From: a virus
Lineage: Duplodnaviria; Heunggongvirae; Uroviricota; Caudoviricetes
Length of the DNA: 21,476 nt
IMG/VR virus record: IMGVR_UViG_648276645_000003
Coordinates: 1 to 21,476 of that record
Direction: 5' to 3' (one strand)
Position 1 is the stretch's first letter. Every line of letters begins with the position of its first letter. Under the pieces are notes generated by a model that saw only the letters and a list, made by a program, of their open reading frames with translations, did no database searches and was not told the origin of the DNA. Positions 1 through 17,588 of the stretch are shown here, one piece after another. The position numbers were made by a program, and so were the translations under genes.

Positions 1-1236
1 CTACGATAACCGCGCATTCAACATAGCTACCTGTTCGTCGTTCATGTCATCAATCCACATACCGTAAATTTCATACACCATCTGCGCAGTTTCATGCCCC
101 ATCTGGCTGGCTATAAATGCCGGGTTCGCTCCTGCCGTCAACAGCCAGCAGGCAAAAGTATGTCGCGTATGGTACGGATTACGGCGGCGAATACCAGCAC
201 GTTTTACTGCTGCATTCCATCTCGCACCCAAACTGCTTACCGAGTAATAAGGTTTCTGTTTTCCGTTACACATCCTGGGCATGAAAACAAAATGCAGTTT
301 TTGCTTTTCGGTTCTGCCGTACTCCCGATGATAAAAAGTGATTTCGCTTTTGCGATGATGCCCGGTCAGTTTGTATTGCTCCTTCAGTGCTTCAAGAGCT
401 GGCTGTAGTAATGTTACCGTCCGGATCCCGGCATTTGTTTTTGGGGGACCGAACATATCCAGTATCGTCAGGTTTCTTCTGACATTCACAGTTCCCTTCT
501 CGAAATCCACATCCTCCCACGCCAGAGCTGCCAGTTCCCCGTGACGAAGCCCGGAGTAAACGGCAAATTTCCACAAGTTCTGGCTCTGTCCTTTTTCACT
601 TTCCATTAATGCATTGAATTCTGTTTTAGATAACGGATCTGGCTTTATTCTGTTTCGCTGTAATTTTTTTACTCCTTCAAATGGTTTGTTTGATATAAAT
701 CCCGACTGATAAGCAAAACGTAACAAAGAACAGAGCAGGGCGATATAGTTATCAACTGTGCGCACGGTTCTTCCTTTTTTGTTAGATCTTGGATTATCCA
801 GGTAAAGCGTTTCTCCATGCAACAGTTCATTCCGGTAATTTAAGATATCGCTATAACGAATATGTGATATCGGGGTACTTTCAGAAATTATTATCCTGAG
901 TGTTTTTAATTGTGATTTCGTTTTCTTCATTGTGTTTGTTGTTAACTCTGTCTCTTTAATTTTTGCCCAGATATCACAAAGCTCCCCGAATGTTTTTATG
1001 ACTCTCGTTGTCACCATTTTTGCCCCAGTGCTGGACTGGGGAAAACGTCTTAAATACTCAAATTCACCGGAGTTTATTTCATGAACTATCAGCGCTCTTA
1101 AATTTCCGGCCTTTTTAATATTACTGTTTGTAATCTCCCAGCCTTTTAATGTTTCCCGACATCGTTTTCCTCGAAACATGAACCAGATGCGAATGTTTCT
1201 ACCTCTAATCTCGACACCTGTTGGTAATTTAGACAT
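1..1236 (-). CDS. intR: Prophage integrase (tyrosine recombinase), Rac IntR-like
   Basis: 411-aa ORF, stop at 1-3, ATG at 1234-1236; N-terminus MSKLPTGVEIRGRNIRIWFMFRGKRCRETLKGW matches my recall of Rac IntR; C-terminal HTRHTFA ... MVYEIY segment fits the tyrosine recombinase catalytic region. Confidence 0.9.
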   Translation of the reverse strand: MSKLPTGVEIRGRNIRIWFMFRGKRCRETLKGWEITNSNIKKAGNLRALIVHEINSGEFEYLRRFPQSSTGAKMVTTRVIKTFGELCDIWAKIKETELTTNTMKKTKSQLKTLRIIISESTPISHIRYSDILNYRNELLHGETLYLDNPRSNKKGRTVRTVDNYIALLCSLLRFAYQSGFISNKPFEGVKKLQRNRIKPDPLSKTEFNALMESEKGQSQNLWKFAVYSGLRHGELAALAWEDVDFEKGTVNVRRNLTILDMFGPPKTNAGIRTVTLLQPALEALKEQYKLTGHHRKSEITFYHREYGRTEKQKLHFVFMPRMCNGKQKPYYSVSSLGARWNAAVKRAGIRRRNPYHTRHTFACWLLTAGANPAFIASQMGHETAQMVYEIYGMWIDDMNDEQVAMLNARLS

Positions 1237-1984: not shown

Positions 1985-2794
1985 TTATTCCTCTGAATTA
2001 TCGATTACACTGTATTCCCCGGTTAATACAGAGGAATCTGCAGGATCGATTGTCAGTGGTTCCTTTTCATCCATTGATACTGCACGCTGGATCTCAATTG
2101 ATACGGGCAGGTATTTGAACAGGCGACGAATAGCCGTTTTCTTTGCCATTTCTTCCCAGTGAGTTACCCACGGCCTGTTATTACCAGCTTTACTCTGGCT
2201 GCGCACCAGCTCAATCTGTTTGCGCGTCATAACTTCAAACTGAGTACCTCCGTCTTTCAGTCTTGCGACAGCATAGACGTGGGTAACCGGGGCATCTTCG
2301 TTTTCTCCTGGGCGGTGTATTAACTTTTCATCAAGGCCAAATTCGAAATTAAACTCGTCACCTTCACGGACAACACGGGCTGACAGGCTGGCGATTTGAC
2401 CTGAACGGCGAGCCAGATCAATCATGCCGCGATAGCCAATGATTAGCTGAACGTTTTTTTTACCGCTCTTTTCGTTTTTATTACCAAAAGGCAGTAAATA
2501 TGCATGACCGAGGGCGCTACCGGGCTCAAGTCCGAGCTGTGAACACTGTACGATTGCACTGACAAAACTCATAGTGTCACAGTTTCCTAACGCCGGAACT
2601 TTACGAATTTCTGTGGTGGCGATACGGATCATACGTTCAGCCGTCATATGGCGTGGAAGAGCTGCTGCCAGTTGCTCTTTCATTGATGGCTGGTTAATAA
2701 AACTAATCACGTCGTTATTTTTAATTGCTGCTGGTGCACGGTTTCCCTGAGTTTTTTGCAGATCGGCTTTTGCGATTGGTGGTTGCTTAGTCAT
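1985..2794 (-). CDS. recT: Recombinase RecT (single-strand annealing protein)
   Basis: Translation from [23 protein letters not shown] matches RecT as I recall it; start ATG at 2792-2794 overlaps the recE stop at 2787-2789; longest ORF extends to 2851. Confidence 0.9.
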
Positions 2795-5447
2795 TTGCAT
2801 ATTCCTTAGCCCAGCGGGGCAGTGATAACGTCTTAATAGCTGGCCATTCATCGGTATTGAGGCAGTCAGCCAGGGTTCGCAGATTGCGGTGATATTCCAG
2901 CTGACCTACCTGTTTTGCTTCTTCGCCCATCATGAAAATTTCAACCGGATAACGTCCGCATTCAATAGTTGTGCTGGCAACCAGAAAAACGAAAGTTGGC
3001 TGCACTCCAAACTGTGCTTCATAACCGTCACTGTAGAATGCATCCTGAACGTGATAGCGGTAGTCGTAATAAGCGGTTTTGAATCGTTGAATATCCGCCG
3101 TAGTTTTCACGTCCATGATCCAGTGAAATTCAGGGATAATTTTGTCCGGACGGCACCGACACAAAATTCCTGTTTCAGGATCTTCCCAGTAAATTGATGA
3201 TTCAGCGTGTCCGGCGCTTTCAACAAGCCATTGCCCCAACGGCAAAGCCATAACGCTTTGATACATGAGTTCAATTTTCCGGCCTTCTTCCGCAGTGATA
3301 ACCGTTTTTCCTGTGCTTGCGCATTCCATCAGAAACGCTTTCTCTTCTTCTTTTCCGGCGTTTGTACGGCGGTTAAATTCAGGTGCTACGATAAAGCGGT
3401 TACTGAATTCTTCCGGTTCAAGTACCCGGCAGTGGAAAGCGGTTCCTAAATCGAGCGTTTTTGTCTTTGTGGTGTCCACGGGGGCATTTTTACGCCACAA
3501 ATACAGTGCGGGAGTATCAGCAATGTCATCGAGCTGAGACTTACTGACACCGGGACCCGCGTGGTAATTCTCATTCGAAATTCCGTAATAAATACCTGGC
3601 TCTATGTCTTCTACGATTACGGGATCTGCGACTTCGCCAGTTTCATCACTGCAATCGCGATGCGGATCGCTGCCAGCATTCTCATGGTGCGGATGTTCAG
3701 CGCCTTCCATTTCCTCCGGATCATTTTCCTTAGCTTCAACCTGATTCTCTTCATCGAATGTTTCCTGGTATGTTGCGTCGCCCATCACCGCACCACAGTC
3801 AGGGCAGTTATCCCCGCCAGTCTGGCCGCAGGCATTGCAGGCTATTTCCGGTTCCTGTTGCACTACTGGCTCAGGTTGTTTCACATCCGGGCTGATTTTT
3901 TCCGTTTCTGGTGTGTTTTGTTCCGTTTCTGGCTGGGAATCGCGAGTCAGGATCCCCTTAACCCATTTCGGATCGTTCGGGTCGCTAATTCCGTCAACAA
4001 ATTCACCACGTGATGCGGCAAGCAATTTATCGGCATCGACAGGATTTTTTGATGGAATGTTTTTCCGGGCTTCATGGAGTTCTGCCCGCAGTTCCTGATA
4101 TTTCGCATCAACAGAATTTACCTGTGACTGAGCATCCAGCGGCTGCGTGTCCTGATGATGTTCAGTTGCGTCCGGTTCCATTGTTTCAGCCTCTCCCTGT
4201 TCATCTGCCGTTGTTCCAGATGGTTGCGGTTTTTCTTCATCATCCTGTTTTCCTTCTTCTGTTACTCGCTGCGGCATCGGGGCAGAGGAGCGACCGCAGG
4301 CAATATCCACGATTTTCGGATCAGGGTTGGCATGATCGGTTTCAGTCAGTACTTTGTTCAGATATTCAGTGACGTGTGCGGGGATGACCTCGATCCCAAT
4401 TGGTGCTTCTTTCACGGACGCAACCACGATGGCGCGGGAATAATCCAGCCCGCCAGGCATGGTGATGAATTTGTCGCGGAAAACAGAAAAGGGCGGTTTA
4501 TTTTCAGCGATAATTTCCTCAATGCGTTTAGCGTGTGCCGGATGAAGGTTATAGATGTCCACGTCCATTGAACGGGCCAGTACGCCAGTGGCTACATCGC
4601 GCGCCAGTGACGTCAGATCGTGGACGAAACCTTCGCCGCGATCGGTGAGGTTCCCGCCGCCAGCATTAGCACCGGAAGCCGTGCGAGTGATGCGTGAAAC
4701 ACGATTCCCTTTTCGCCATTCTTTTGTCAGAAGACCGCGATCAATGTGTTCGGTATCCAGCCAGGCTGAAATGAAATTCTTAAATTCATAGGGCTGATGT
4801 TTTTTCGTGATAGAGAAAACTGCCTTAATTGCATCAGTCAGGCGGAGCAGGGCGGCATTATCCAGAGTTGTCGGTTCTGCCATGCCGCGTATGGCCAACA
4901 GCAGATTCTGGACATAGCTGTTTTCCTGATCCATCTCAAGAGCAGTAATGTGTTCGCGTTGTTCTCGGGTGGCATGATGCAGGTATTTCCGATCCCCGGC
5001 CGCATAGGTAAAAATGTGCAGAAGACGCTGTGTGAACCGCAAAGTAGATACAGAGATTTCGCAATCCTGGCAATCCCCGTGAGCGTCTGCCCGTGTGTTT
5101 TCTTCCTGGCCTCCCGCCAGTTCTTCGGTTTCCGGTGCATCCTCCTGATGGTGAACGTCGTCTGGCGCTGCTCCCGGTTTTAGTTCCCAGGTCATGGAGT
5201 CTTTGCTGAGTTGATAGCGTTCACTCCAGGTAAAATCGATCTCACCTTCAGGGGGAAGGTCATTAACGACAGGAAAATTCGTGGCAACAGGTTTAAAATA
5301 GCTGCTCAGTTTTTTACCTGACTTAACGAGCAGGTAGTCCAGAGTGGCACAGGTCGATTCAAAATCGTCGCTTGCCCACAGGACGACGTCAGGTTCACCG
5401 GATGATTTTTTCGCTTTCCGTAACAGGAAGAGTGGTTTTGTGCTCAT
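2787..5447 (-). CDS. recE: Exodeoxyribonuclease VIII (RecE)
   Basis: 886-aa ORF beginning [26 protein letters not shown]; acidic, low-complexity central region and a C-terminal nuclease region as in Rac RecE; directly upstream of and overlapping recT. Confidence 0.9.
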
Positions 5448-6290: not shown

Positions 6291-6731
6291 AATTATCTCC
6301 ATTTTTACAAATGAACTTTGTTGATGCGGTGCCTGGTGCTTCCAGGTGACTGCAACCAGTTAACAATTACAGTCGGCTTTCCCACCCAAACCAATAAGGA
6401 CTAACATGACTTTTAACTGTGCCACGTGCGCTTAGCCGCATTCACCGCATCACAAAATTCACTTTAAAAAGGGCGGACATCAGCCGAACTTCAAGAAAAA
6501 AACTGATGCCGCCAGGACTACACACAGCAATGTCGTTATTTACAACCGGAGGCGCACTCCCACCATTTAAATTTAACAGACAAGACCGACTCTTTATGGA
6601 TATCGGAAATGCGCCTTCGTGTTGTGCCCGGTTTTATTTCACCACCTCCGGGCTTCGGTGGTCTCGGCTATACCCCTACAGCGAGAGCTTGTGTTAACAT
6701 TTCAATACCCTTACAGTTGAGAGTTATTGAT

Positions 6732-7220
6732 ATGTTGGATGTATTTACTCCATTGTTGAAACTTTTTGCTAACGAGCCACTCGAAAGACTTATGTATACG
6801 ATTATCATTTTTGGTCTCACTCTCTGGCTGATACCGAAAGAGTTTACTGTCGCATTCAATGCTTATACTGAAATACCTTGGCTCTTTCATATTATCGTTT
6901 TTGCCTTTTCTTTCGTGGTCGCCATTTCCTTCTCAAGATTGCGAGCACATATTCAAAAGCATTATTCATTACTACCAGAGCAACGAGTATTGCTTCGTTT
7001 ATCTGAGAAAGAAATCGCTGTATTTAAAGATTTCCTTAAAACAGGAAATCTTATTATCACTTCTCCTTGCCGTAACCCGGTTATGAAAAAATTAGAACGG
7101 AAGGGCATCATTCAACATCAGAGTGATAGCGCAAACTGTTCTTATTATCTCGTCACCGAAAAATACTCCCATTTTATGAAGTTATTCTGGAACAGCAGGA
7201 GTAGACGTTTTAATCGTTAG
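6732..7220 (+). CDS. sieB: Superinfection exclusion protein B
   Basis: 162 aa from internal ATG at 6732 (MLDVFTPLLKLFANEPLERL...); hydrophobic membrane segments; position between kil and the immunity region as in lambdoid phages; longest ORF begins at 6609. Confidence 0.85.
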   Translation: MLDVFTPLLKLFANEPLERLMYTIIIFGLTLWLIPKEFTVAFNAYTEIPWLFHIIVFAFSFVVAISFSRLRAHIQKHYSLLPEQRVLLRLSEKEIAVFKDFLKTGNLIITSPCRNPVMKKLERKGIIQHQSDSANCSYYLVTEKYSHFMKLFWNSRSRRFNR

Positions 7221-7517: not shown

Positions 7518-7764
7518 CTTATCTCTCCCCTTAACGCTGGGTGGCGGAACGTTTTATCTACTGCGCTTTGTATCAATCAACAACTGCCGTCATGTTCGTA
7601 TGCCTCAGGCTGGCTACTTAGCCCTGTTCAGTGGCTGGATAACTCGAGGTATTGTCCTGCCGTTCTCTGGTGGGGCGTTGTTTGGATATGTTTATTAAAC
7701 ACAAAATGATTTTCCGTGTCAACACGAATTGTGTTTTGTGGTGAGGTGTCATATGATGATGATA

Positions 7765-7816: not shown

Positions 7817-8239
7817 TCATTGCTCCGGTGGGGGGGTATCTTTAAGCCTGCCTCTCAAATATTTTTCTACATACTCGTCGATTTCTTTTAGCCGAACTTC
7901 AAATAGCTCAATCATTCGTTGTTGTTCTGAGCCCGGTAGCTGGTTAAACAACTCTAGAAGTTTTCGTTGGGATTCATTTAACCACAATTCAGAAGAGTCT
8001 TTTTCTCCAAACAGGAGTTCAGGAGGAGATATGCCCAGTGCCTTTCCCAGTACGACAGCATCATGCACTCCAACATTTCTGCTGCCCGCCTCATAGTTAC
8101 CTATACGCGATTGCGTCCATCCGCAGATTTCAGCAAGTTTTCCTTGCGATAAACCAAGCTTCTGCCTGCGCTCTTTAAGACGCATTGCAATTTTGTCATT
8201 GAGCCTACTAGCGGCAATTTTTTCGTTTTCTTTTTCCAT
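7817..8239 (-). CDS. Prophage repressor, HTH XRE-family (CI/RacR-like by position)
   Basis: 140-aa ORF; HTH-like segment LKERRQKLGLSQGKLAEICGWTQSRIGNYEAG; divergent from the Cro-like gene across an operator-containing intergenic region. Confidence 0.8.
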   Translation of the reverse strand: MEKENEKIAASRLNDKIAMRLKERRQKLGLSQGKLAEICGWTQSRIGNYEAGSRNVGVHDAVVLGKALGISPPELLFGEKDSSELWLNESQRKLLELFNQLPGSEQQRMIELFEVRLKEIDEYVEKYLRGRLKDTPPPEQ

Positions 8240-8335
8240 TGCATCCTTGTATCACGAATCGTGATTCACATAAAACACAAAACAGCTTGACCGCATAACA
8301 CAGGATGTGTTTAAAATTGTCGTCGGAGGTTTTCA
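8240..8335. promoter_or_regulatory. Divergent immunity-region promoter/operator
   Basis: Perfect 15-bp palindrome ATCACGAATCGTGAT at 8251-8265; rightward -35-like TTGACC at 8287-8292 and -10-like TAAAAT at 8312-8317; GGAGG Shine-Dalgarno before the ATG at 8336. Confidence 0.6.
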
Positions 8336-8578
8336 ATGAACAAAATTTCAACATATCGAAAACAGCTTGGCCTGTCTCAAAGACAACTCGCTGTTCAGTT
8401 AGGGTGGATACAAAGCCGACTAGCAAATTACGAAGCAAACTTTCGTACCCCTGGGCTAGAGGAGTGCAGAAAAATTGTTTCCACCCTTAATCGGCTTGGC
8501 GCTCATTGTGGACTTGACGATGTATTCCCCCCAGACGGTAAGCATAGCGAAAACAGCATAGGAGCGGTTGATTCATGA
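8336..8578 (+). CDS. Cro/YdaS-like HTH DNA-binding protein
   Basis: 80-aa ORF with N-terminal HTH-like segment RKQLGLSQRQLAVQLGWIQSRLANYE; strong GGAGG RBS; divergent from the repressor. Confidence 0.8.
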   Translation: MNKISTYRKQLGLSQRQLAVQLGWIQSRLANYEANFRTPGLEECRKIVSTLNRLGAHCGLDDVFPPDGKHSENSIGAVDS

Positions 8579-8997
8579 AAATCAGGCATGAGCATATCGA
8601 ATCAGTGTTGTTGGCCCTGGCATCTGAAAAAGGGCAGGCATGGGTTGCCAATGCGGTCACTGAAGAATATCTGCGCCAGGGGGGCGGCGAATTGCCCCTG
8701 GTTCCAGGCAAGGACTGGAACAATCAGCAGAATATCTATCACCGTTGGTTGAAAGGTGAAACGAATGCGCAAAGGGAAAAAATTCAGAAGCTGATCCCAG
8801 CAATTCTGGCAATCCTTCCGCGCGAGCTGCGTCACCGACTCTGCATCTTCGATACCCTGGAACGCCGTGCATTACTGGCGGCGCAGGAAGCGTTAAGTAC
8901 GGCAATTGATGCGCATGATGATGCAGTCCAGGCCGTTTACCGGAAAGCGCATTTCAGCGGTGGCGGGTCTTCCGACGATTCTGTCATTGTTCATTAA
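8575..8997 (+). CDS. ydaT: YdaT-like prophage protein
   Basis: 140-aa ORF; ATG overlaps the stop of the Cro-like gene (ATGA); position and length match Rac YdaT as I recall it. Confidence 0.7.
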   Translation: MKIRHEHIESVLLALASEKGQAWVANAVTEEYLRQGGGELPLVPGKDWNNQQNIYHRWLKGETNAQREKIQKLIPAILAILPRELRHRLCIFDTLERRALLAAQEALSTAIDAHDDAVQAVYRKAHFSGGGSSDDSVIVH

Positions 8998-9009
8998 GCA
9001 AAAGTTTCC

Positions 9010-9429
9010 ATGCTGTTTGTGCTTATTCTAAGCCACCGGGCAGCATCATACGGGGCAATTATGGCCGCATTACCATACATGCAACTGTACATAGCTGATT
9101 ACCTGGCTGACACCATGCATTTGTCAGCAGAGGAGCATGGTGCGTATTTGTTGCTGATGTTCAATTACTGGCAAACAGGAAAGCCAATACCTAAAAACAG
9201 GCTGGCAAAAATTGCCCGTCTGACTAACGAGCGATGGGCTGATGTTGAACCATCCTTGCAGGAGTTTTTTTGCGATAACGGCGAGGAATGGGTGCATCTT
9301 CGGATTGAGGAAGATCTGGCATCAGTCAGGGAAAAATTACCAAAAAATCAGCCGCAGGAAAAGCATCTGTTCAGGCCAGAAGAAGCAGAAAGGAAGCAGA
9401 TGTTCAAACAAAACAAGAGAGAAATTTAA
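9010..9429 (+). CDS. YdaU-like replication-region protein, N-terminal segment (possibly split by frameshift)
   Basis: 139-aa ORF; the ATG at 9061 (MAALPYMQLYIADYLADT...) has a better RBS (ACGGGG) than 9010; ends at 9429 while the next ORF's frame is already open from 9309. Confidence 0.55.
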   Translation: MLFVLILSHRAASYGAIMAALPYMQLYIADYLADTMHLSAEEHGAYLLLMFNYWQTGKPIPKNRLAKIARLTNERWADVEPSLQEFFCDNGEEWVHLRIEEDLASVREKLPKNQPQEKHLFRPEEAERKQMFKQNKREI

Positions 9430-9452
9430 CAGGTGTTCAAACAGATGTTGAA

Positions 9453-10208
9453 GTGGTGTTTGAACATGATGTCAACACAAAGGCAACTAATAAAGATACA
9501 GATAAAGATCTAAAAACAGATCTAACCCATCCCAAACCCTTCCCTTCCGGAAGGGCGTTTCGGGATTTTGTGGCTGGAGTGCTTGAGGGGAGATTATCTG
9601 GCGGTACTGCAGCGGAATTTTGTAATTCTGCGGTGGTTGCGTTGCAGGCTGCTGGCCTGGATGTCTGTCGTGAGTATCCGGTGCCAGAGCGTGGTGACGG
9701 TTGCGGTGGGCGGATTGATATCGTCGTGACTGACAGGAACGGTGTCCGGTGTGGGATCGAGCTTGACCGAAATTCTCCGCGACAGAAATCACTGCTCAAA
9801 ATCGGTGCTGTTGAAACCGGGATATGTGTCTTGCGGCGCAGTGATATCGCAAGGCACACCGAGCAGGGAATTCTGGTTATCGGCGGGGCTGTTCGCCAGA
9901 AAAAATTTGACCCGTTGTCAGTTGATCTGCCCGACTGGTTGCCAGAAACACTCTGGCATGAGTGGGTCCAGTTCAGGCAGGCATTGCGTAAACCGATTCG
10001 AACGGAGCAGGGCGCTAACGGGGCGATACGGGAGCTGGAAAAATTCCGCCAGCAGGGTTTTTCACCTGAGCAGGTGATTCGACACAGCATCGCCAATGAA
10101 TACCAGGGCTTGTTCGTGCCAAAAGGTGTTCGACCTGAGACGTTACTCCGACAGGTTAACACCGTCTCGTTACCGGATAGTGCGATCCCGCCAGGCTTTA
10201 GGGGGTAA
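9453..10208 (+). CDS. ydaU: YdaU-like replication-region protein, C-terminal segment
   Basis: Listed ORF starts at a GTG at 9453, but its frame is open back to 9309 with no ATG; basic linker (KKSAAGKASVQARRSRKEADVQ) when read from 9309; lies just upstream of the DnaC-like gene. Confidence 0.55.
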   Translation: MVFEHDVNTKATNKDTDKDLKTDLTHPKPFPSGRAFRDFVAGVLEGRLSGGTAAEFCNSAVVALQAAGLDVCREYPVPERGDGCGGRIDIVVTDRNGVRCGIELDRNSPRQKSLLKIGAVETGICVLRRSDIARHTEQGILVIGGAVRQKKFDPLSVDLPDWLPETLWHEWVQFRQALRKPIRTEQGANGAIRELEKFRQQGFSPEQVIRHSIANEYQGLFVPKGVRPETLLRQVNTVSLPDSAIPPGFRG

Positions 10209-10214
10209 CTGACC

Positions 10215-10949
10215 ATGAAAAATATTGCGGCAGGCGGCATTCTTGAACGTATCCGCAGACTGGCCCCGCCACATGTAACCGCCCCATTCAAAACGGTAGC
10301 GGAGTGGCGCGAGTGGCAACTTTCCGAAGGCCAGAAACGTTGTGAGGAGATCAACCGTCAGAATCGTCAGTTGCGGGTGGAAAAAATTCTGAATCGCTCT
10401 GGCATCCAGCCATTGCACCGCAAATGCTCGTTTGCGAATTACCAGGTGCAGAACGACGGTCAGCGATACGCGTTGAACCAAGCGAAATCTATCGCTGATG
10501 AACTGATGACCGGGTGTACAAATTTTGCGTTCAGCGGAAAACCTGGTACCGGAAAAAACCATCTGGCGGCGGCTATCGGGAATCGCCTGCTGAAAGATGG
10601 CCAGACAGTGATTGTGGTTACCGTGGCTGATGTCATGAGTGCTCTACACGCCAGCTATGACGACGGGCAATCAGGCGAAAAATTTTTGCGGGAACTGTGC
10701 CAAGTGGATCTGCTGGTTCTTGATGAAATTGGCATTCAGCGCGAGACAAAAAACGAGCAGGTGGTGCTGCACCAGATTGTTGATCGCCGGACAGCGTCGA
10801 TGCGCAGCGTGGGGATGCTGACAAACCTGAACTATGAGGCTATGAAAACATTGCTCGGCGAGCGGATTATGGATCGCATGACCATGAACGGCGGACGCTG
10901 GGTGAATTTTAACTGGGAGAGCTGGCGTTCGAATGTTGGCTTGCGATGA
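10215..10949 (+). CDS. ydaV: Replication protein, DnaC-like helicase loader (YdaV-like)
   Basis: 244-aa ORF; Walker A FSGKPGTGKNHLAAAIG and Walker B DLLVLDEIG; typical position after the O-like gene. Confidence 0.85.
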   Translation: MKNIAAGGILERIRRLAPPHVTAPFKTVAEWREWQLSEGQKRCEEINRQNRQLRVEKILNRSGIQPLHRKCSFANYQVQNDGQRYALNQAKSIADELMTGCTNFAFSGKPGTGKNHLAAAIGNRLLKDGQTVIVVTVADVMSALHASYDDGQSGEKFLRELCQVDLLVLDEIGIQRETKNEQVVLHQIVDRRTASMRSVGMLTNLNYEAMKTLLGERIMDRMTMNGGRWVNFNWESWRSNVGLR

Positions 10950-10990
10950 TTTTTATGAGGAAATAATCGACGAATGAGGGCTAATGTCTG

Positions 10991-11087
10991 GTCACCCGGT
11001 TGACAATTACAAATATTTTATTGACGATGAATGGAAAATGCGTGACGATTACAATATATGACTTGTCAAAGTATAATGAGAGATTGC
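10991..11087. promoter_or_regulatory. Iteron-like repeat array and promoter region upstream of the AAA+ ATPase gene
   Basis: TGAC(A/G)AT direct repeats begin at 11001, 11022 and 11043 (exact 21-bp period); inverted copy TTGTCAA at 11063-11069 and GTCAC at 10991-10995; -10 candidates TACAAT 11050-11055 and TATAAT 11072-11077. Confidence 0.5.
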
Positions 11088-12191
11088 ATGAAGATTAACC
11101 ATGAGGATTTAATTGATCTTATAAAGGCATCACTGGATGCGAATTACAGCGAAGTTCGTAGTGTTAGTAATCGCATTGTTCGCGCAATTAGCGCTCAGGA
11201 TGCTGACTTAGCAAAGCAAATTAAGTCTATCATCCGTAAAAAAGGGGTACCATTACGTAGCTCTGGTTATACGGACAGTTTGCCCTTAGATCCGAAATCA
11301 AGGATGCCTTTAGTGGAAGAAGTCGAATGGCCTGCAACGCCTTTATTTCTTTCTGATGAATCACAGCATATTTTTCATGCTTTTATTCAGAATGTTATCC
11401 ATCAGAATGAACTTATAGAGAATGGAATTCCAGGTAAATTGAATTTACTTCTTTCTGGTCCGCCAGGAACAGGTAAGACATTAGTCGCTGGTCATATCGC
11501 ATCCAAATTAAACAAACCGCTCTATGTTGTTCGGCTTGACTCTGTTATTTCTTCTCTGTTAGGTGATACAGCGAAGAACCTAAGACAGATTTTTGACTTC
11601 GTCCCGACAAAAGATGGTGTGTTATTTCTTGATGAAGTAGATGCGGTTGCTAAGCTTCGTGATGACAATCAGGAAGTTGGAGAGTTAAAAAGAGTTGTTA
11701 ACACATTAATCCAAGGACTGGATTCTCTTGATGATTCTGCTATTGTCATTGCTGCAACTAATCATTCGAAGCTATTGGATCCAGCAATTTGGAGACGTTT
11801 CCCATATAAAATTAGCTTTGGTTTGCCTGGACAAGATGTCAGATGTGCTATGTGGGAACATTTTTTATTTAGAGATGATACGGATTCATTTCTAAGTAAA
11901 ATGTTATCTATCATATCAACTGGGCTAACAGGTGCTGATATTGAAAATATCAGTTTATCTGCAAGAAGGCATAGTGTTTTATCTGGCAATGGACTGGATA
12001 TACCATCTGTTGTTTATGCTATATTGAATAGCGTTGCGGATAGTACAGCAATTCCTTTTGGTAAGGATATAAATTCGAGTGTTAAGAAAAATTTAGCGAA
12101 GGAATTATCTAAGTTTAAATTATCACAGGCAGATATCGGTAGACTTTTAAATGTGAGCAGGCAAACTATATCAGGTTATTTCAAGGAATAA
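11058..12191 (+). CDS. Classical-clade AAA+ ATPase with C-terminal HTH-like tail
   Basis: Walker A GPPGTGKT (residues 134-141), Walker B VLFLDEVD (188-195), sensor-1 IAATN, second-region-of-homology-like LLDPAIWRRF; C-terminal LSQADIGRLLNVSRQTISGYF resembles an HTH; alternative ATG at 11088 has a GAGAG RBS; AT-rich (~35% GC). Confidence 0.85.
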   Translation: MTCQSIMRDCMKINHEDLIDLIKASLDANYSEVRSVSNRIVRAISAQDADLAKQIKSIIRKKGVPLRSSGYTDSLPLDPKSRMPLVEEVEWPATPLFLSDESQHIFHAFIQNVIHQNELIENGIPGKLNLLLSGPPGTGKTLVAGHIASKLNKPLYVVRLDSVISSLLGDTAKNLRQIFDFVPTKDGVLFLDEVDAVAKLRDDNQEVGELKRVVNTLIQGLDSLDDSAIVIAATNHSKLLDPAIWRRFPYKISFGLPGQDVRCAMWEHFLFRDDTDSFLSKMLSIISTGLTGADIENISLSARRHSVLSGNGLDIPSVVYAILNSVADSTAIPFGKDINSSVKKNLAKELSKFKLSQADIGRLLNVSRQTISGYFKE

Positions 12192-12193
12192 TT

Positions 12194-14461
12194 ATGGTCA
12201 GTGAAAATAAAGCTAAAATTTTAAACCCAATAATTACTTTATTGAAACCACCAACGCCAGAGGCGATTCCTGTTGGAGGGAAAAGTCGTAAAAATATTGT
12301 TGGTTCACGGTTGAAACAACAGCGTGAAGTTTTATCCTCAGAGATAGATTCCATATTAAGAACAGAAAGTGAAATAGTTAAACATCGTGGTAAGTATCAT
12401 ATAGTAACAAGTATGTTTGAGGACTCATATGCACCATCGTTTATACCAGATTCATTATTCTGTCCCAGTGTTGAATGTAAGATAGTTGCACCAGCATACA
12501 ATGGATATTTAATTGAGGTCAATAGCAATGCTTTATTGAAGTTGAAAAATAAAATTAATAATGCAAAAGCTATTACTGATCTTGTGGATATTTCAAGGGT
12601 TAGAAGTGTTAGTCTTTTTGATTCATCTTGTACATTGCGAAATAGTAGCCTTGATTCGCTCTGGAATACAGTTAAGGCTTTGAATACATTTCAATTTAAT
12701 GTGTGGTTTATGCCTTTTTTTGATGAGCTTTCTAGAGAGTCTGTAGTTTCAACTTTTTTAAATTTTTTAAATGATGGTATCATCGCTTTTGGTTATTCAG
12801 ATTTTGACATAAAAACTATAAATCAAGATGCTGCTGTTGGCGGGGATAATATAGTCATAGTTCCACCGTTACTTATTGAAGCGATAAAAAAGTATCGTAA
12901 ATCAGGTCAAGCATCCGTTACCGTCACTGTAGAGACTAAAGATAGTTTAAACAGGATGCTGAATAGCAGTGCTGTGTATCGTATAGATCCTGTATCACCG
13001 CTAAACGTAACAGATACTCCTCCTGGTAATGGGGCTGAACCTGTTCCACCAATATTGGGGGATAAGAAAATGCCAACTGTAGTTGTAATTGATGGTGGGT
13101 GCAATGCGAAATCATATTCAAAATTAAATATATATAAACTAAATCCGCTAATTCCAGATCATGATGCAGATTGTAAACATGGTAATAAAGTTGTATCGTT
13201 GTTATGTCACGGTTATGCTTGGAATAATAATTTAAACTTACCTAAATTGCAATGTAGCTATATAAGTGCACAGGCTATTGCGAAAAGGGGAGTGTTGAAA
13301 CAACCAACTCCGGATCAATTTTTAAATTATTTAAGAATGGTTGCTGACAAAACGTCATCTATCGCCAAGGTCTGGAATCTTTCGTTTAATGAAGACGCTC
13401 CTCATTATAACTGTAATGAGATAAGTTATCTGGGACATAAAATCAGTTTGTTGGCTCGAGAATTTGGTATTCTGCCTGTAATATCTATCGGTAATGTTTC
13501 AAAGAACGAAAAACAAAAAAATCTTTGTCCGCCCGCAGATTGTGAGTCAGGAATTACAGTAAGTGGGAGAACGGCCAATCATGAAGGAATGCCTTCAGAT
13601 GGCTGTCCTTTAAGTCGGAAAGGCCCTGCTCCTGCAGGAATGAAAAAACCTGAGTTATCATGGTTTTCTCGAGTTAGGGTGATAGGTGGAACAGTAGATA
13701 TCGGAACAAGTTTTAGTGCTCCATTAGTTTCATCTATTGCTGCTCATACCTTTTCGAATATTAAAAATGCCACTCCTGATTTGGTTAGGGCATTATTGAT
13801 TAACAGGAGTGAGTTGCTTTCTCATGATGATGCATTAGGATGGGGGACTCCTTGGGATGGCGATTTACTGCCATGGTATTGTAAAGATGGCAGTGTCACA
13901 TTAACGTGGATATCTAAGTTAAAGGCTGGGGCTGCTTATTATTGGAACGATCTTCCATTACCTCCAGAGATGTTAGTTAATGGTAAATTAGTTGGTGAGA
14001 TATCTCTGACAGCTATACTAAAACCTAAGGTTTCTGAGTTCGGAAGTGAGAACTATTTTTCGACAAGGCTCCAATGTTCGTTACAGGCAATAAAAGAAAT
14101 TAACGGGACGCTAAAAACAGAAAGCCTTCTTGGGTCAATGAAAGAATCTTCTGTTGATGAGCGTAAAGCTAGAAATGAACTTTCTAAATGGAGCCCTATT
14201 CGCCATCATGCAGAGTCGTTTAAGAGAAAAGATATAACAGGGTGTAAAATTCGGCTTTATGCTAGGATATATGCTAGAGATTTGTATCAGTATGGGTTAA
14301 ATAACCAACGGGAGCTTGAAGAGCAAGAGGTTTCCTTTGTTTTAACTTTTAAAAGTGTATCAGGATCGTCCTCAATATATACATCAATGGTTCAGCAACT
14401 TGGTGTTTATGTTGAAAGTGCTGTTATAGATAATCACATTAACATAGATGTTAATAAGTGA
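12194..14461 (+). CDS. Subtilisin-like (S8) serine protease, large multi-domain, cytoplasmic
   Basis: 755-aa ORF starting 2 nt after the ATPase stop, with AGGA RBS inside the ATPase 3' end; ordered S8 motifs VVVIDGG (Asp300), CKHGNKV (His329), GTSFSAP (Ser507); no N-terminal signal peptide; about 290 aa N-terminal and 235 aa C-terminal of the catalytic core unassigned; AT-rich. Confidence 0.8.
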   Translation: MVSENKAKILNPIITLLKPPTPEAIPVGGKSRKNIVGSRLKQQREVLSSEIDSILRTESEIVKHRGKYHIVTSMFEDSYAPSFIPDSLFCPSVECKIVAPAYNGYLIEVNSNALLKLKNKINNAKAITDLVDISRVRSVSLFDSSCTLRNSSLDSLWNTVKALNTFQFNVWFMPFFDELSRESVVSTFLNFLNDGIIAFGYSDFDIKTINQDAAVGGDNIVIVPPLLIEAIKKYRKSGQASVTVTVETKDSLNRMLNSSAVYRIDPVSPLNVTDTPPGNGAEPVPPILGDKKMPTVVVIDGGCNAKSYSKLNIYKLNPLIPDHDADCKHGNKVVSLLCHGYAWNNNLNLPKLQCSYISAQAIAKRGVLKQPTPDQFLNYLRMVADKTSSIAKVWNLSFNEDAPHYNCNEISYLGHKISLLAREFGILPVISIGNVSKNEKQKNLCPPADCESGITVSGRTANHEGMPSDGCPLSRKGPAPAGMKKPELSWFSRVRVIGGTVDIGTSFSAPLVSSIAAHTFSNIKNATPDLVRALLINRSELLSHDDALGWGTPWDGDLLPWYCKDGSVTLTWISKLKAGAAYYWNDLPLPPEMLVNGKLVGEISLTAILKPKVSEFGSENYFSTRLQCSLQAIKEINGTLKTESLLGSMKESSVDERKARNELSKWSPIRHHAESFKRKDITGCKIRLYARIYARDLYQYGLNNQRELEEQEVSFVLTFKSVSGSSSIYTSMVQQLGVYVESAVIDNHINIDVNK

Positions 14462-14501
14462 TGTACAGAAACTGATTTATTATTATGTTAATTAATGTAT
14501 T

Positions 14502-14522
14502 ACCCGCCTCGGCGGGTTTTTT
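14502..14522 (+). terminator. Rho-independent terminator of the ATPase-protease operon
   Basis: GC stem CCCGC/GCGGG with 4-nt loop, followed by T6 at 14517-14522, about 40 bp past the protease stop. Confidence 0.75.
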
Positions 14523-14555
14523 ATCTGCCGATGGTGAAGGTTGAAAAATAATCAC

Positions 14556-14620
14556 ATATTTGATTGTATGCGCAGCAAGAAATAAAAGTCATTGCGTTCG
14601 CACATTAAACAATCAAATAT
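14556..14620. repeat. 12-bp perfect inverted repeat pair with 41-bp spacer
   Basis: ATATTTGATTGT at 14556-14567 and its reverse complement ACAATCAAATAT at 14609-14620. Confidence 0.6.
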
Positions 14621-14704
14621 ACAACATGAAATAAACATTCTGTGTATATATATTTTTGCCTCCAGGTAGATATAAACCTCTTTCCTTAGAGGCTTGGAGG
14701 CATC

Positions 14705-14917
14705 GTGAAAAACTCACAGGAATCTTTTAGCACTAAATTTGCAGTCATACGTTGTGATGATCTGTCAGTTATTGTTGAAATGGATTATTTCCCTGATACA
14801 CAAAAAGCAATGATGTATCGGAATGGCCGCAAGGCAATTTTTTTACCGATGAGGAATAGTGATATTATGGGAAATGATAAATTGCCAGATGAATTGCGAG
14901 TCAGGGCATCCTGTTAG
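14705..14917 (+). CDS. Small hypothetical protein in the AT-rich island
   Basis: 70-aa ORF with GTG start preceded by GGAGG (14696-14700, 4-nt spacer); AT-rich like the upstream operon; no recognisable motif. Confidence 0.45.
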   Translation: MKNSQESFSTKFAVIRCDDLSVIVEMDYFPDTQKAMMYRNGRKAIFLPMRNSDIMGNDKLPDELRVRASC

Positions 14918-14988
14918 TATTGGCATTGATTCTGGTATACTACACAACGGGCTGAACACCCATTCTACTGCGCCAGCGGAGAACTACG

Positions 14989-15588
14989 ATGGCGCATATA
15001 CAACTGGTCAAACAAACCTCTTCCGGATTACTTCTCCCGGCGACGCCGGAGAGTTGTGATTTTCTGCATCAAATAAAAATAGGTGAGTGGATACACGCAG
15101 ACTTTAAGCGTGTGCGTAACTACGCATTCCACAAGCGTTTTTTCAAACTCCTGCAACTGGGATTCGATTACTGGACTCCGGTCGGTGGGGCGATCACGCC
15201 TCGCGAACGAGAACTGCTGTCTGGTTTCGTGGATTACCTGTGCGAATCAGTTGGTCGGGAACATACGCCAGCCCTGAGTGATGCCGCAGAGCAATACCTT
15301 AACACCGTTGCGACTCGCAGAACCCGGGATACGGCGTTGCTAAAGTCGTTTGAGGCTTTCCGCGAGTGGGTAACCATTCAGGCCGGATTTTACACCGAGC
15401 ATATTTATCCGGACGGTAGCCGTGGGCGTCGGGCAAAATCCATCGCTTTTGCGAATATGGACGAAGTCGAGTTTCAGCAGGTTTATAAATCTGTACTGAA
15501 TGTGCTGTGGAACTGGATTCTGTTCCGTAAATTCTCCTCTCAGGAGGAAGTTGAAAATGTGGCCGCACAACTACTGGAGTTTGCGTAA
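14989..15588 (+). CDS. Conserved lambdoid nin-region protein, function unknown
   Basis: 199-aa ORF with GGAGAA RBS; backbone-like GC content; first gene of a translationally coupled block leading to the Q-like gene. Confidence 0.7.
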   Translation: MAHIQLVKQTSSGLLLPATPESCDFLHQIKIGEWIHADFKRVRNYAFHKRFFKLLQLGFDYWTPVGGAITPRERELLSGFVDYLCESVGREHTPALSDAAEQYLNTVATRRTRDTALLKSFEAFREWVTIQAGFYTEHIYPDGSRGRRAKSIAFANMDEVEFQQVYKSVLNVLWNWILFRKFSSQEEVENVAAQLLEFA

Positions 15589-15878
15589 TGGTGAATTTAC
15601 GTAAAGCGGCTAAAGGCCAGATGTGCCAGATCAGAATCCCTGGCTACTGCAATCACAATCCCGAAACCTCTGTGCTGGCGCATTACAGGCTGGCGGGGAC
15701 GTGCGGAACAGCGACAAAACCACACGATATGCAGGCGGCGATAGCCTGTAGCTCATGCCACGATCTAATCGACGGGCGGGTAAAAACCAGCGATTACACC
15801 AAAGAAGAATTGCGCCTGATGCATGCTGAAGGGGGTTTTCGCACACAAGAAATCTGGAGAAAGAAAGGTCATTTATGA
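15588..15878 (+). CDS. Small Cys-rich phage protein (possible zinc-binding), function unknown
   Basis: 96-aa ORF, TAATG overlap with the upstream gene; Cys clusters (CQIRIPGYC and CSSCHDLIDG). Confidence 0.65.
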   Translation: MVNLRKAAKGQMCQIRIPGYCNHNPETSVLAHYRLAGTCGTATKPHDMQAAIACSSCHDLIDGRVKTSDYTKEELRLMHAEGGFRTQEIWRKKGHL

Positions 15879-16417
15879 TTTACCCAACAAATACAGGTAA
15901 AAGCGGGGAACACCTTCGTCTCACCACGCTGGAAAGTGTCTGGATTCAGGGAAAACTGCGCATGTGGGGGCGCTGGTCGTATATTGGCGGCGGTAAGACG
16001 GGGAATATGTTCAACCAGTTGTTGGGCTCTAAAAAGCTGACAAAAACGGCAATTAACGAGGCGCTCCGGAGGATGAAAAAAGCAGGCCTGAACAAGTCTG
16101 AACTTGAGGCTTTTTTGCGGGATATGATTAACGGTAAGCAAAAGAGCTGGCTGGCGCATTGTACTGATGCAGAGGCGTTATGTATTGATCGGGTCATAAG
16201 TGAGGTGCTGGCAGAGCATCCAGGATTGATTAGCGTCCTTCGGCAACGGTATGAGGGGCGGGGGATGACCAAACGCAAAATGGCTGAATTGCTAAATGAT
16301 GCACACCCAGAGTGGTGTTTTAGCACATGCGAAAAGCGAATTGCTAATTGGTTAGCCGTTGCTGAATATGCCCTGTATATTCCCATGCGAGAATCATTTG
16401 CTCAAAAAATAGCTTGA
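15875..16417 (+). CDS. Putative late-gene antiterminator (Q-like)
   Basis: 180-aa ORF, ATGA overlap with the upstream gene; last gene before a terminator hairpin, the tRNA cluster and the lysis cassette; assignment is positional. Confidence 0.55.
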   Translation: MIYPTNTGKSGEHLRLTTLESVWIQGKLRMWGRWSYIGGGKTGNMFNQLLGSKKLTKTAINEALRRMKKAGLNKSELEAFLRDMINGKQKSWLAHCTDAEALCIDRVISEVLAEHPGLISVLRQRYEGRGMTKRKMAELLNDAHPEWCFSTCEKRIANWLAVAEYALYIPMRESFAQKIA

Positions 16418-16500
16418 TTTTTTACGCATAAATTGCTTCAATTCCGGTATGCTTCGCAAAGCTGTATCGCGAGGCGAACCAAGCGCATGAACTTTACCAG

Positions 16501-16529
16501 AACCCGCCATTGAGCGGGTTTTGTTGTTT
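16501..16529 (+). terminator. Terminator-like hairpin downstream of the Q-like gene (tR'-like candidate)
   Basis: Stem ACCCGC/GCGGGT with 6-nt loop followed by TTTTGTTGTTT. Confidence 0.55.
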
Positions 16530-16569
16530 CTGGGGGGCATTTCGTTAAATGAAGCTGTGTTGTGCGCAA

Positions 16570-16603
16570 TTAGCTAATAACACGAATCGTGAATGTATAT
16601 AAT
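16570..16603 (+). promoter_or_regulatory. Candidate promoter with operator-like palindrome upstream of the tRNA cluster
   Basis: TATAAT at 16598-16603; 11-bp palindrome CACGAATCGTG at 16581-16591 in the spacer, matching the core of the immunity-region palindrome; -35 weak (TAATAA). Confidence 0.4.
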
Positions 16604-16671
16604 GCGCTTGTTCCTTCGATGGTGTATTCGAATAACGGATTACTGAATACAGCTATCCCATTAAGGGAACA

Positions 16672-16745
16672 CCGCCATCTGCTCATCGGGAAGAGCCGAC
16701 CATCATTTAAGTGGTAGGTGTGAGGTTCGATACCTCGGTGGCGGT
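16672..16745 (+). other. tRNA-like cloverleaf (possible non-canonical or degenerate tRNA, anticodon-loop CAUUUAA)
   Basis: Hand-folded: 7-bp acceptor stem (CCGCCAT/GTGGCGG), D-arm GCTC/GAGC with GGG loop, T-arm with TTCGATA loop; but C at position 8, A at position 33, an extra nucleotide at position 26 and no encoded CCA. Confidence 0.35.
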
Positions 16746-16750
16746 TCTGT

Positions 16751-16826
<76 letters not shown>

Positions 16827-16829
16827 TAT

Positions 16830-16904
<75 letters not shown>

Positions 16905-17179
16905 GCATTTGAAATAAGCCTTATTGTATTGCAGCACTGGCGTATTTTTATTACGTGGGAGCAGGTTGTTTCGAAAAAGCATTCTGTTCTCTGGCTATGA
17001 TTTGAGGCCAGGTGTAGCCTCAGTGCTGATTTTTTTACGGCAGCAGAATGGTGCATTATCGGTGGAGATTTTGTATTTCCTTGCAGGGCCGGTGATGTGC
17101 CATCCCGATGTTGTAAACATCGCTAAAAATGACATTGAGATTAATCATATACTAAGCAAAACCTGGAAATACATCCTTT

Positions 17180-17204
17180 ACCGCCTCCACCGGGCGGTTT
17201 TTTT
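17180..17204 (+). terminator. Rho-independent terminator after the tRNA cluster
   Basis: Stem CCGCC/GGCGG with 7-nt loop followed by T7 at 17198-17204. Confidence 0.7.
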
Positions 17205-17588
17205 ATTCTGAACCCTAAAAAAGAAACACGGACACTGATAATGCCCGTGTGGCAATGCCATGTAAGTTAGCGATGAATATGGCGCAAAAAAAAGCGCGGC
17301 CGTCGGATTAACGCCGCGGGACAAAGTCCATGAAGACTCATAAGTATTGGCCCCCTTCTGGGGACATGTTCATACTACTAAGCTTCAGAAGTGGTTTAAA
17401 TCATCAAATTAACCTTAATTTTCGATAAGTCTTATTTCATTTCTTTGCGCCACATCTGGCGCGCATCAAATAACGCCACGCAAAGGGCATCTGCGGATGC
17501 CGGTGCTTTTGACGGGGTGTTTTTTACGGGCCGCTGGTGGCCATTTTTTGTTTCCATTACACAGGCCCGCATCTGCGAGGTGGGGGTT

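Follow-up and report, generated by a model that had tools for sequence, protein, structure and literature searches.

An operator-like sequence upstream of the tRNA genes of a Rac-like prophage is probably a fortuitous feature of a mobile tRNA cassette

The window, i.e. the whole stretch of 21,476 nucleotides that was analysed (IMG/VR record IMGVR_UViG_648276645_000003, positions 1 to 21,476), is a Rac-like lambdoid prophage in which the following genes are present:

1-1236, minus strand: integrase (label from position and the RefSeq annotation of related prophages)
2787-5447, minus strand: RecE-sized gene (label from position and the RefSeq annotation of related prophages)
6609-7220: SieB
7817-8239, minus strand: prophage repressor, 140 aa, with a helix-turn-helix (HTH) domain of the Xre/434-cI type (Pfam HTH_3, E=5e-13)
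8336-8578, plus strand: Cro-like HTH protein, 80 aa, divergent from the repressor (Pfam HTH_3)
8575-8997: YdaT (CII-analogue) gene, directly after the cro-like gene (Pfam YdaT_toxin)
after the YdaT gene: replication genes
11058-14461, plus strand: IetA/IetS pair (PADLOC)
before Q: DUF1367 and YbcO genes
15875-16417, plus strand: late antiterminator Q, DUF1133/Q-like (Pfam DUF1133, E=4e-107; Phage_antitermQ, E=7e-6)
16751-16826, plus strand: tRNA-Thr(TGT) (ARAGORN; Rfam tRNA, 73.8 bits)
16830-16904, plus strand: tRNA-Gly(TCC) (ARAGORN; Rfam tRNA, 67.8 bits)
after tRNA-Thr and tRNA-Gly: holin, lysozyme and Rz genes

The labels for integrase, xis and RecE were assigned from position and related RefSeq annotation, without a domain search. 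For the repressor, no S24 peptidase domain was found in the 140 aa, the PDB matches cover HTH regions only (SaPI 'Orf20', C.AhdI and the 434, P22 and lambda repressors), and the PHROG matches are to transcriptional regulator/repressor families; Q matches PHROG 753 (anti-termination protein Q-like). The IetA/IetS defence system (IetA, an AAA ATPase of 377 aa, E=5e-100; IetS, a subtilase of 755 aa, E=1e-65; PADLOC) sits between the replication genes and the nin-like region, and the phage vB_EcoS-683R6 has, at the same place, two genes that are comparable in size and annotation (S8 family peptidase). Moreover, another IMG/VR record (L008; IMGVR_UViG_2734482784_000002) represents the same prophage with 8520-15587 deleted; the deletion joins the cro-like gene region to the YbcO gene, with loss of the replication genes, the IetA/IetS pair and DUF1367.

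The immunity region was compared among five lineages that have the same immunity type, i.e. the window and four prophages (L027, L028, L029 and L042) from O157:H7 ECP19-598, APEC O1, strain P4 and strain H9, with immunity regions that are 95-96% identical. The order of the repressor, cro-like and YdaT genes matches the RefSeq annotations of L027-L029, and the immunity type is carried by 162 of the 5,426 complete E. coli genomes. Three operators were delimited:

7721-7735, unstranded: OL operator AACACGAATTGTGTT, AACAC-(GAATT/GAAAT/AAAGT)-GTGTT across the lineages
8251-8265, unstranded: OR-left operator ATCACGAATCGTGAT, invariant in the five lineages and a perfect match to AWCAC-N5-GTGWT
8297-8311, unstranded: OR-right operator AACACAGGATGTGTT, arms invariant, centre AGGAT or AAGAT

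The arms of these sites, A[A/T]CAC...GTG[T/A]T, are invariant in all five lineages, and the 5-bp centres drift (GAATC in OR-left; GAATT, GAAAT or AAAGT in OL; AGGAT or AAGAT in OR-right, where 8297-8311 reads AACACA(G/A)GATGTGTT across the lineages). Because the arms are constant while the five central bases drift, we read the recognition sequence as AWCAC-N5-GTGWT with a free centre. The window has three perfect matches to this sequence, where 0.11 would be expected, and each of them is one of the immunity-region sites; the plain CAC-N5-GTG occurs five times, and three of these occurrences are the immunity operators. The comparison thus bears out the initial annotation in so far as it had taken 8251-8265 for an operator, and CACGAATTGTG at 7723-7733, which OL encloses, for a looser relative of it.

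With respect to the early promoters, OR-left lies 12 bp upstream of the repressor start codon, OR-right fills the spacer of the predicted rightward promoter (-35 TTGACC, 8287-8292; -10 region TTTAAAAT, 8310-8317), and OL abuts and overlaps the perfect -35 of the predicted leftward promoter (TTGACA, 7722-7717; -10 region TTTAAT, 7699-7694), in which both hexamers are conserved and the spacer is variable across the lineages. These hexamers were read from the sequence; the consensus scan, which requires A at position 2 of the -10, lists none of them. The placement of the operators fits a lambda-like switch. Isolated conserved AACAC half-sites are also present at 7699-7703, in the spacer of the leftward promoter, and at 8275-8279, between the two OR operators; either the repressor or the Cro-like protein may make additional contacts there, or the half-sites are coincidental.

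Boxes of the YdaT type (TGATT-N6-AATCA) are found at three places. An exact box at 8569-8584 covers the start codon of ydaT, a placement that has also been reported from Rac and CP-933P (PMC11879457, PMC9986795). A second exact box, TGATTATTAATAATCA, lies at 1505-1520, upstream of the xis/int genes, and its position suggests a possible CII-like activation of integration. The third, with one mismatch (8262-8277), overlaps the right edge of OR-left.

The arrangement is familiar from the lambda, 434 and P22, CP-933P and Rac-type sets, in which the repressor and cro-like genes likewise diverge and both early promoters are covered by operators of dyad symmetry. Shared as well are a further operator at a leftward promoter beyond the repressor gene, and a YdaT (CII-analogue) gene after cro with a YdaT box over its start codon (PMC11879457). 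However, the AWCAC-N5-GTGWT operators of the window differ in sequence both from the GTTTAGTAA-type repeats that are the operators of CP-933P (PaaR2/YdaS; PMC8630535) and from the RacR operators, WTAGGC-n3-GCCTAW (PMC9638921), and there are only two full sites at OR and one at OL. As far as the literature that we searched goes, this operator set is undescribed.

The OR-left palindrome ATCACGAATCGTGAT consists of 7-bp arms around a central A, and its 11-bp core, CACGAATCGTG, is present exactly at two places in the window, 8253-8263 and 16581-16591. The identity between the two copies runs to the 12-mer CACGAATCGTGA (8253-8264 and 16581-16592). The initial annotation had reported this recurrence together with CACGAATTGTG at 7723-7733 and a TATAAT at 16598-16603, and on re-reading all sequences and coordinates were correct. 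With one mismatch allowed the 11-mer gives five strand-hits in the window, against 0.23 expected, and 0 of 100 shuffles reach five; these hits include the three immunity sites (a palindrome being counted on both strands), and because the immunity sites dominate the count the excess does not by itself test the late-region site. A first-order Markov model of the window predicts 0.009 copies per window of the exact 11-mer and 0.0025 of the 12-mer; the figure is 0.035 if the core of whichever of the three operators is accepted, and 0.19 if any 11-mer sub-match is. In a single window such a recurrence is improbable (P about 0.01-0.04) but unremarkable for a feature drawn from a whole-genome scan. 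The flanks of the two copies, compared by eye, show identity at chance level beyond the shared 12-mer, and there is therefore no sign of a copied segment. The one paper that a full-text search of the literature for the 11-mer brought up is an unrelated one on Drosophila.

The late-region copy and its surroundings were then set against the operator definition:

16579-16593, unstranded: operator-like site AACACGAATCGTGAA, with a core 11-mer identical to that of OR-left

The site reads AACAC-GAATC-GTGAA and has A at position 15, where T is present in 15 of 15 operator instances from the five lineages; nine of the ten arm positions match, and when the outer pair A1/T15 is included it falls short of the operator definition by one arm mismatch. 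Two such one-mismatch arm matches are seen in the window, against 2.6 expected by chance. What sets 16579-16593 apart is only its centre, GAATC, which, judged from the operator alignment, is unconstrained in the operators and is the same as in OR-left. The other one-mismatch match, AACACGGACACTGAT at 17225-17239, lies inside a terminator-like hairpin of the minus strand (17226-17250) and is most likely due to chance. Outside the immunity region the window holds one extra exact core, not the multiple copies of a dispersed operator set.

The operator-like site spans about -31 to -17 relative to the putative start associated with the TATAAT, a position at which a bound protein would be expected to block RNA polymerase; having nine of ten arm positions and the centre of a bona fide operator, it is quite possible that it would be bound in vitro. 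Two other readings of the palindrome were discarded: as an RNA hairpin, its best fold (-2.4 kcal/mol, z = -0.96) has a stem of only 4 bp that closes a 3-nt loop, and as a YdaT box (TGATT-N6-AATCA) it has, by eye, three mismatches in ten positions.

Between Q and the tRNA genes two blocks can be told apart. The first is linked to Q:

16414-16530, plus strand: candidate late promoter/terminator unit (pR'-tR' analogue); terminator by scan, promoter and pause elements read from the sequence

The unit begins with TTGATT (16414-16419), which overlaps the Q stop codon, followed 17 bp on by TTCAAT (16437-16442) and by a -10-like TATGCT (16448-16453; TACGCT in relatives) at about the start site, and a leader of ~80 nt ends in a strong intrinsic terminator (16498-16523) plus a T-run. 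The whole of 16414-16530 is conserved with Q in vB_EcoS-683R6 and an O157:H7 prophage (Q 93-96% identical). In lambda, pR'-tR' is laid out with a sigma-dependent pause element, and by analogy 16414-16530 likely represents such a unit. We infer that late transcription is governed by Q at this promoter-terminator unit, upstream of the tRNA cassette. The proposal in the initial annotation that the repressor also controls the late region is not upheld, since the operator-like site, being downstream of the terminator at 16498-16523, cannot govern initiation of the late operon; the machinery of late transcription (Q, promoter and terminator, 15875-16530) is inherited with Q and ends before the cassette.

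The second block belongs to the tRNA genes:

16531-16750, plus strand: 5' block (leader) of a mobile tRNA cassette, ~220 bp, with boundaries from comparison
16598-16607, plus strand: putative -10 TATAAT plus GCGC discriminator, candidate cassette (tRNA) promoter; TATATAAT invariant in E. coli A10
16671-16745, plus strand: tRNA-like element (degenerate tRNA) that opens the RNA array of the cassette; cloverleaf-like MFE fold, z = -2.6

Homology to vB_EcoS-683R6 covers Q and ~115 bp up to the T-run of the terminator, is then lost, and resumes exactly at tRNA-Thr, 16531-16750 being replaced by unrelated DNA. The O157:H7 prophage has the same Q end and terminator followed by a different cassette with tRNA-Met, and in all, three different cassettes begin right after the T-run of the Q-linked terminator. 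Since the Q/terminator homology ends at the T-run and different cassettes follow, 16531-16750 is an exchangeable leader. Its order is poly-G junction, ATTAGCTAAT palindrome, operator-like site, TATAAT-GCGC, leader hairpin and tRNA-like element. The poly-G tract (16531-16538) at the left cassette junction varies between 6 and 9 G among otherwise identical copies. The ATTAGCTAAT palindrome, a perfect one of 10 bp at 16569-16578, lies just upstream of the operator-like site, and nine of its ten positions are kept in E. coli A10. A role for RacR as a binder of the cassette was considered and rejected; its half-site ATTAGGC bears no more than a superficial likeness to ATTAGCTAAT, and the spacing does not fit.

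Within 16525-16680, TATAAT at 16598-16603 is the single -10/-35 candidate; from it to tRNA-Thr the distance is 148 bp, and to the tRNA-like element about 70 bp. Its -35 is weak, with no good hexamer at 16-18 bp spacing, and the consensus scan called no promoter here; the best options for a -35 are CTAATA (3/6, 18-bp spacer) and ATAACA (4/6, 15-bp spacer). The element that the initial annotation had described as promoter-like thus keeps its -10, with TATATAAT invariant in A10, but loses its upstream half: the start coordinate given for it implies TTAGCT (16570-16575) as the -35, which leaves a spacer of 22 bp and no workable sigma-70 geometry. The sequence TATAATGCGC resembles stable-RNA promoters that are under stringent control, rrnB P1 for example, and a tRNA promoter carried by the cassette is a plausible candidate.

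Downstream of the TATAAT a stable leader hairpin (16608-16672, z = -3.6) precedes the tRNA-like element, which has a 9-bp acceptor stem and an aberrant anticodon arm. The element is called neither by ARAGORN nor by Rfam, and its homologue in Yersinia phage YeP1 is annotated tRNA-OTHER. Of the Rfam families searched in 16300-17500, only tRNA-Thr and tRNA-Gly reach thresholds.

The distribution of the leader bears directly on the suggestion that the repressor controls the tRNA genes. The leader (16531-16750) is present at about 100% identity in 39-40 of 5,426 complete E. coli genomes, as well as in 10 contigs from IMG/VR and 4 from metagenomes. The Q genes adjoining it reach only 88-90% identity. 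By a two-part query (cassette and immunity region) of the complete E. coli genomes, at least 26 of the 39 that carry the cassette are entirely without the immunity region of the window. Specifically, ATCC 8739 combines an identical leader with an unrelated HTH repressor and an immunity region that has GTACT-N3-AGTTC repeats, and RM10740 and PK8568 combine it with RacR-YdaS immunity; in the immunity regions of these three the 11-mer is absent even with one mismatch, and cassette contigs with more than 13 kb of upstream DNA show no palindrome of the immunity type.

Conversely, three of the five lineages with the immunity type have other cassettes (tRNA-Met in O157:H7, tRNA-Thr/Gly with another leader in APEC O1, an ORF6N gene in P4). 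In these three prophages no site within two mismatches was found in the stretch following Q, and no CAC-N5-GTG between Q and the next gene. Immunity type and cassette are combined in two independent lineages: the window with its deletion derivative L008, and the prophage that is shared by five genomes (H9, FDAARGOS_1268 and three Z142 isolates). Hence 16579-16593 is not co-inherited with the repressor gene, three of five lineages having no such site, nor is it absent where the repressor is absent, being identical in the RacR-type and ATCC 8739-type prophages. With the leader identical under other repressors and the site missing from three of the five lineages, cassette and immunity type assort freely; the site occurs without the repressor, and the repressor mostly without the site. 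All cassette copies but one are nearly identical, so that the motif being kept in other immunity backgrounds shows that it originated independently, not that it lacks function here.

The exception comes from E. coli A10, whose leader is 75% identical; no other diverged homologue was found. Such homologues were sought by pattern scans of viral, metagenome and genome contigs and by blastn in 'distant' mode; the scans returned only identical copies or unrelated chance matches (two scans of genome contigs were empty), and blastn returned A10 plus matches in Yersinia phages to the tRNA-like part only. The A10 cassette follows an antiterminator of a different family. It keeps TATATAAT and AATTAGCTAA unchanged, and its core reads TACAAATCGTA, with 8 of 11 positions kept, which is the background rate. 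Two of the three core changes are dyad-symmetric (C3 to T with G13 to A), turning CAC...GTG into TAC...GTA; with five arm pairs, a single double change of this kind falls short of significance and only weakly hints that the palindrome matters to some factor. Co-variation of TACAAATCGTA with the immunity operators of A10 itself was considered and rejected, as the ymfK-ymfT operators (TTGTACC-N5-GGTACAA and CATATTA-N6-TAATATG) differ in geometry and do not match. A relative with two mismatches lies between the ribosome-binding site and the ATG of ymfT in A10, and such matches are at chance level (6 against 7.7 expected).

Our data therefore speak against the central proposal of the initial annotation, repressor control of the tRNA genes: the same leader occurs under RacR and other immunity, most lineages of the same immunity type are without the site, the outer T is missing, and in A10 the core has drifted at the background rate next to an invariant -10 box. 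We consider it probable that the late-region copy is a near-operator by chance only, lying at the promoter of a mobile tRNA cassette that mosaic recombination has brought next to the repressor of the window, and we infer that this copy has no meaningful regulatory effect at the tRNA site. According to this interpretation the 140-aa Xre-type repressor, and probably the Cro-like protein too, would recognise the three AWCAC-N5-GTGWT operators in the immunity region, and 16579-16593 would fall outside this operator design, at the -35 and spacer of a promoter candidate that is weak, dominated by its -10 and placed at the head of the cassette leader. The leader would be a self-contained mosaic block that has recombined behind the Q-promoter-terminator units of many Rac-like prophages, whichever repressor they carry; in the lineage of the window and one other, the cassette would happen to share a genome with a repressor whose operator it resembles, and the resemblance would come down to arms with a single mismatch and a centre that is under no functional constraint and is identical by coincidence.

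Among the alternatives, the one that survives best is real cross-regulation, in which the repressor or the Cro-like protein binds 16579-16593 and shuts the cassette promoter in the lysogen, so that the tRNAs are made only after induction. The exact 12-mer identity with OR-left (0.0025 expected) and the nine arm positions are in its favour, as are the overlap of the site with the -35/spacer of the sole promoter candidate in the leader and the combination of immunity type and cassette in two independent lineages. Operators at a distance from the immunity region are moreover known for the repressors of other phages, namely P1 C1 and mycobacteriophage L5 gp71. On the other hand, the outer T that is invariant in the operators is missing, the site pre-exists unchanged in prophages that do not have the repressor of the window, three of five lineages with the repressor have no equivalent, A10 gives no excess conservation, and the cassette promoter is itself only a candidate. 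We therefore regard cross-regulation as unlikely; such a link could be either adventitious or one reason why the combination persists. Adventitious binding of the repressor to 16579-16593 in this particular mosaic is likewise less likely than not. It is equally a tentative idea that mosaic recombination has put a mobile tRNA cassette under a resident repressor, with tRNAs that are silent in the lysogen and released on induction; if true, this would be regulatory wiring caught in the act, made by module shuffling and not by evolution of the site.

A clearly less probable explanation is that the palindrome is an element of the cassette itself, used by a host or other factor to tune the tRNA promoter, in which case its likeness to the immunity operator would be irrelevant. 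This would agree with the conservation of the leader at ~100% beside Q genes of 88-90% identity, with the symmetric change of the outer arm positions in A10 (CAC...GTG to TAC...GTA), and with the second perfect palindrome, ATTAGCTAAT, just upstream and nearly invariant in A10. Yet recent spread accounts just as well for the near-clonal identity of the cassette, the A10 evidence comes from a single diverged homologue in which 8/11 is the background rate and one symmetric double change in five arm pairs is not significant, and the operators of A10 do not match its variant. Furthermore, we know of no E. coli regulator whose site can be recognised in the palindrome, which is a further point against a dedicated element.

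Finally, we find it very improbable that the TATAAT belongs to a Q-dependent late promoter with the palindrome as Q-binding element. In its favour, the distance from Q to the TATAAT downstream is 180 bp, and the Q-binding element of lambda is located between the -35 and -10 of pR'; but 683R6 and the O157:H7 prophage keep Q (93-96%) with the cassette exchanged for unrelated DNA, the part co-inherited with Q is 16414-16530, and the same cassette lies behind a different antiterminator family in A10, so that this candidate was rejected.

The P1 C1 and L5 gp71 systems ('stoperators') likewise place a sequence that resembles a repressor site far from the immunity region and beside a promoter unrelated to immunity. 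In these systems there are many operator copies per genome, conserved together with the repressor. In contrast, the window has a single imperfect copy in an exchangeable cassette that occurs without the repressor and is missing from most repressor-bearing prophages. As to the tRNA genes, these are known downstream of Q and pR' in lambdoid and Stx prophages, where a small tRNA array is likewise present between the Q/late-promoter unit and the lysis genes; the array of the window differs in having its own leader, a TATAAT-GCGC promoter candidate and a degenerate tRNA-like first element, and in being an independent mosaic block.

The comparison defines AWCAC-N5-GTGWT as the operator sequence of a common Rac-like immunity type, delimits the leader of a mobile tRNA cassette, and points to the likely pR'-tR' unit of DUF1133-type Q proteins. 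It also shows that an exact recurrence of an 11-12-mer can arise from mosaicism plus chance. If the repressor did bind the cassette promoter, it would mean that the shuffling of phage modules can create new regulatory links at once, and that the expression of prophage tRNAs is tied to induction.
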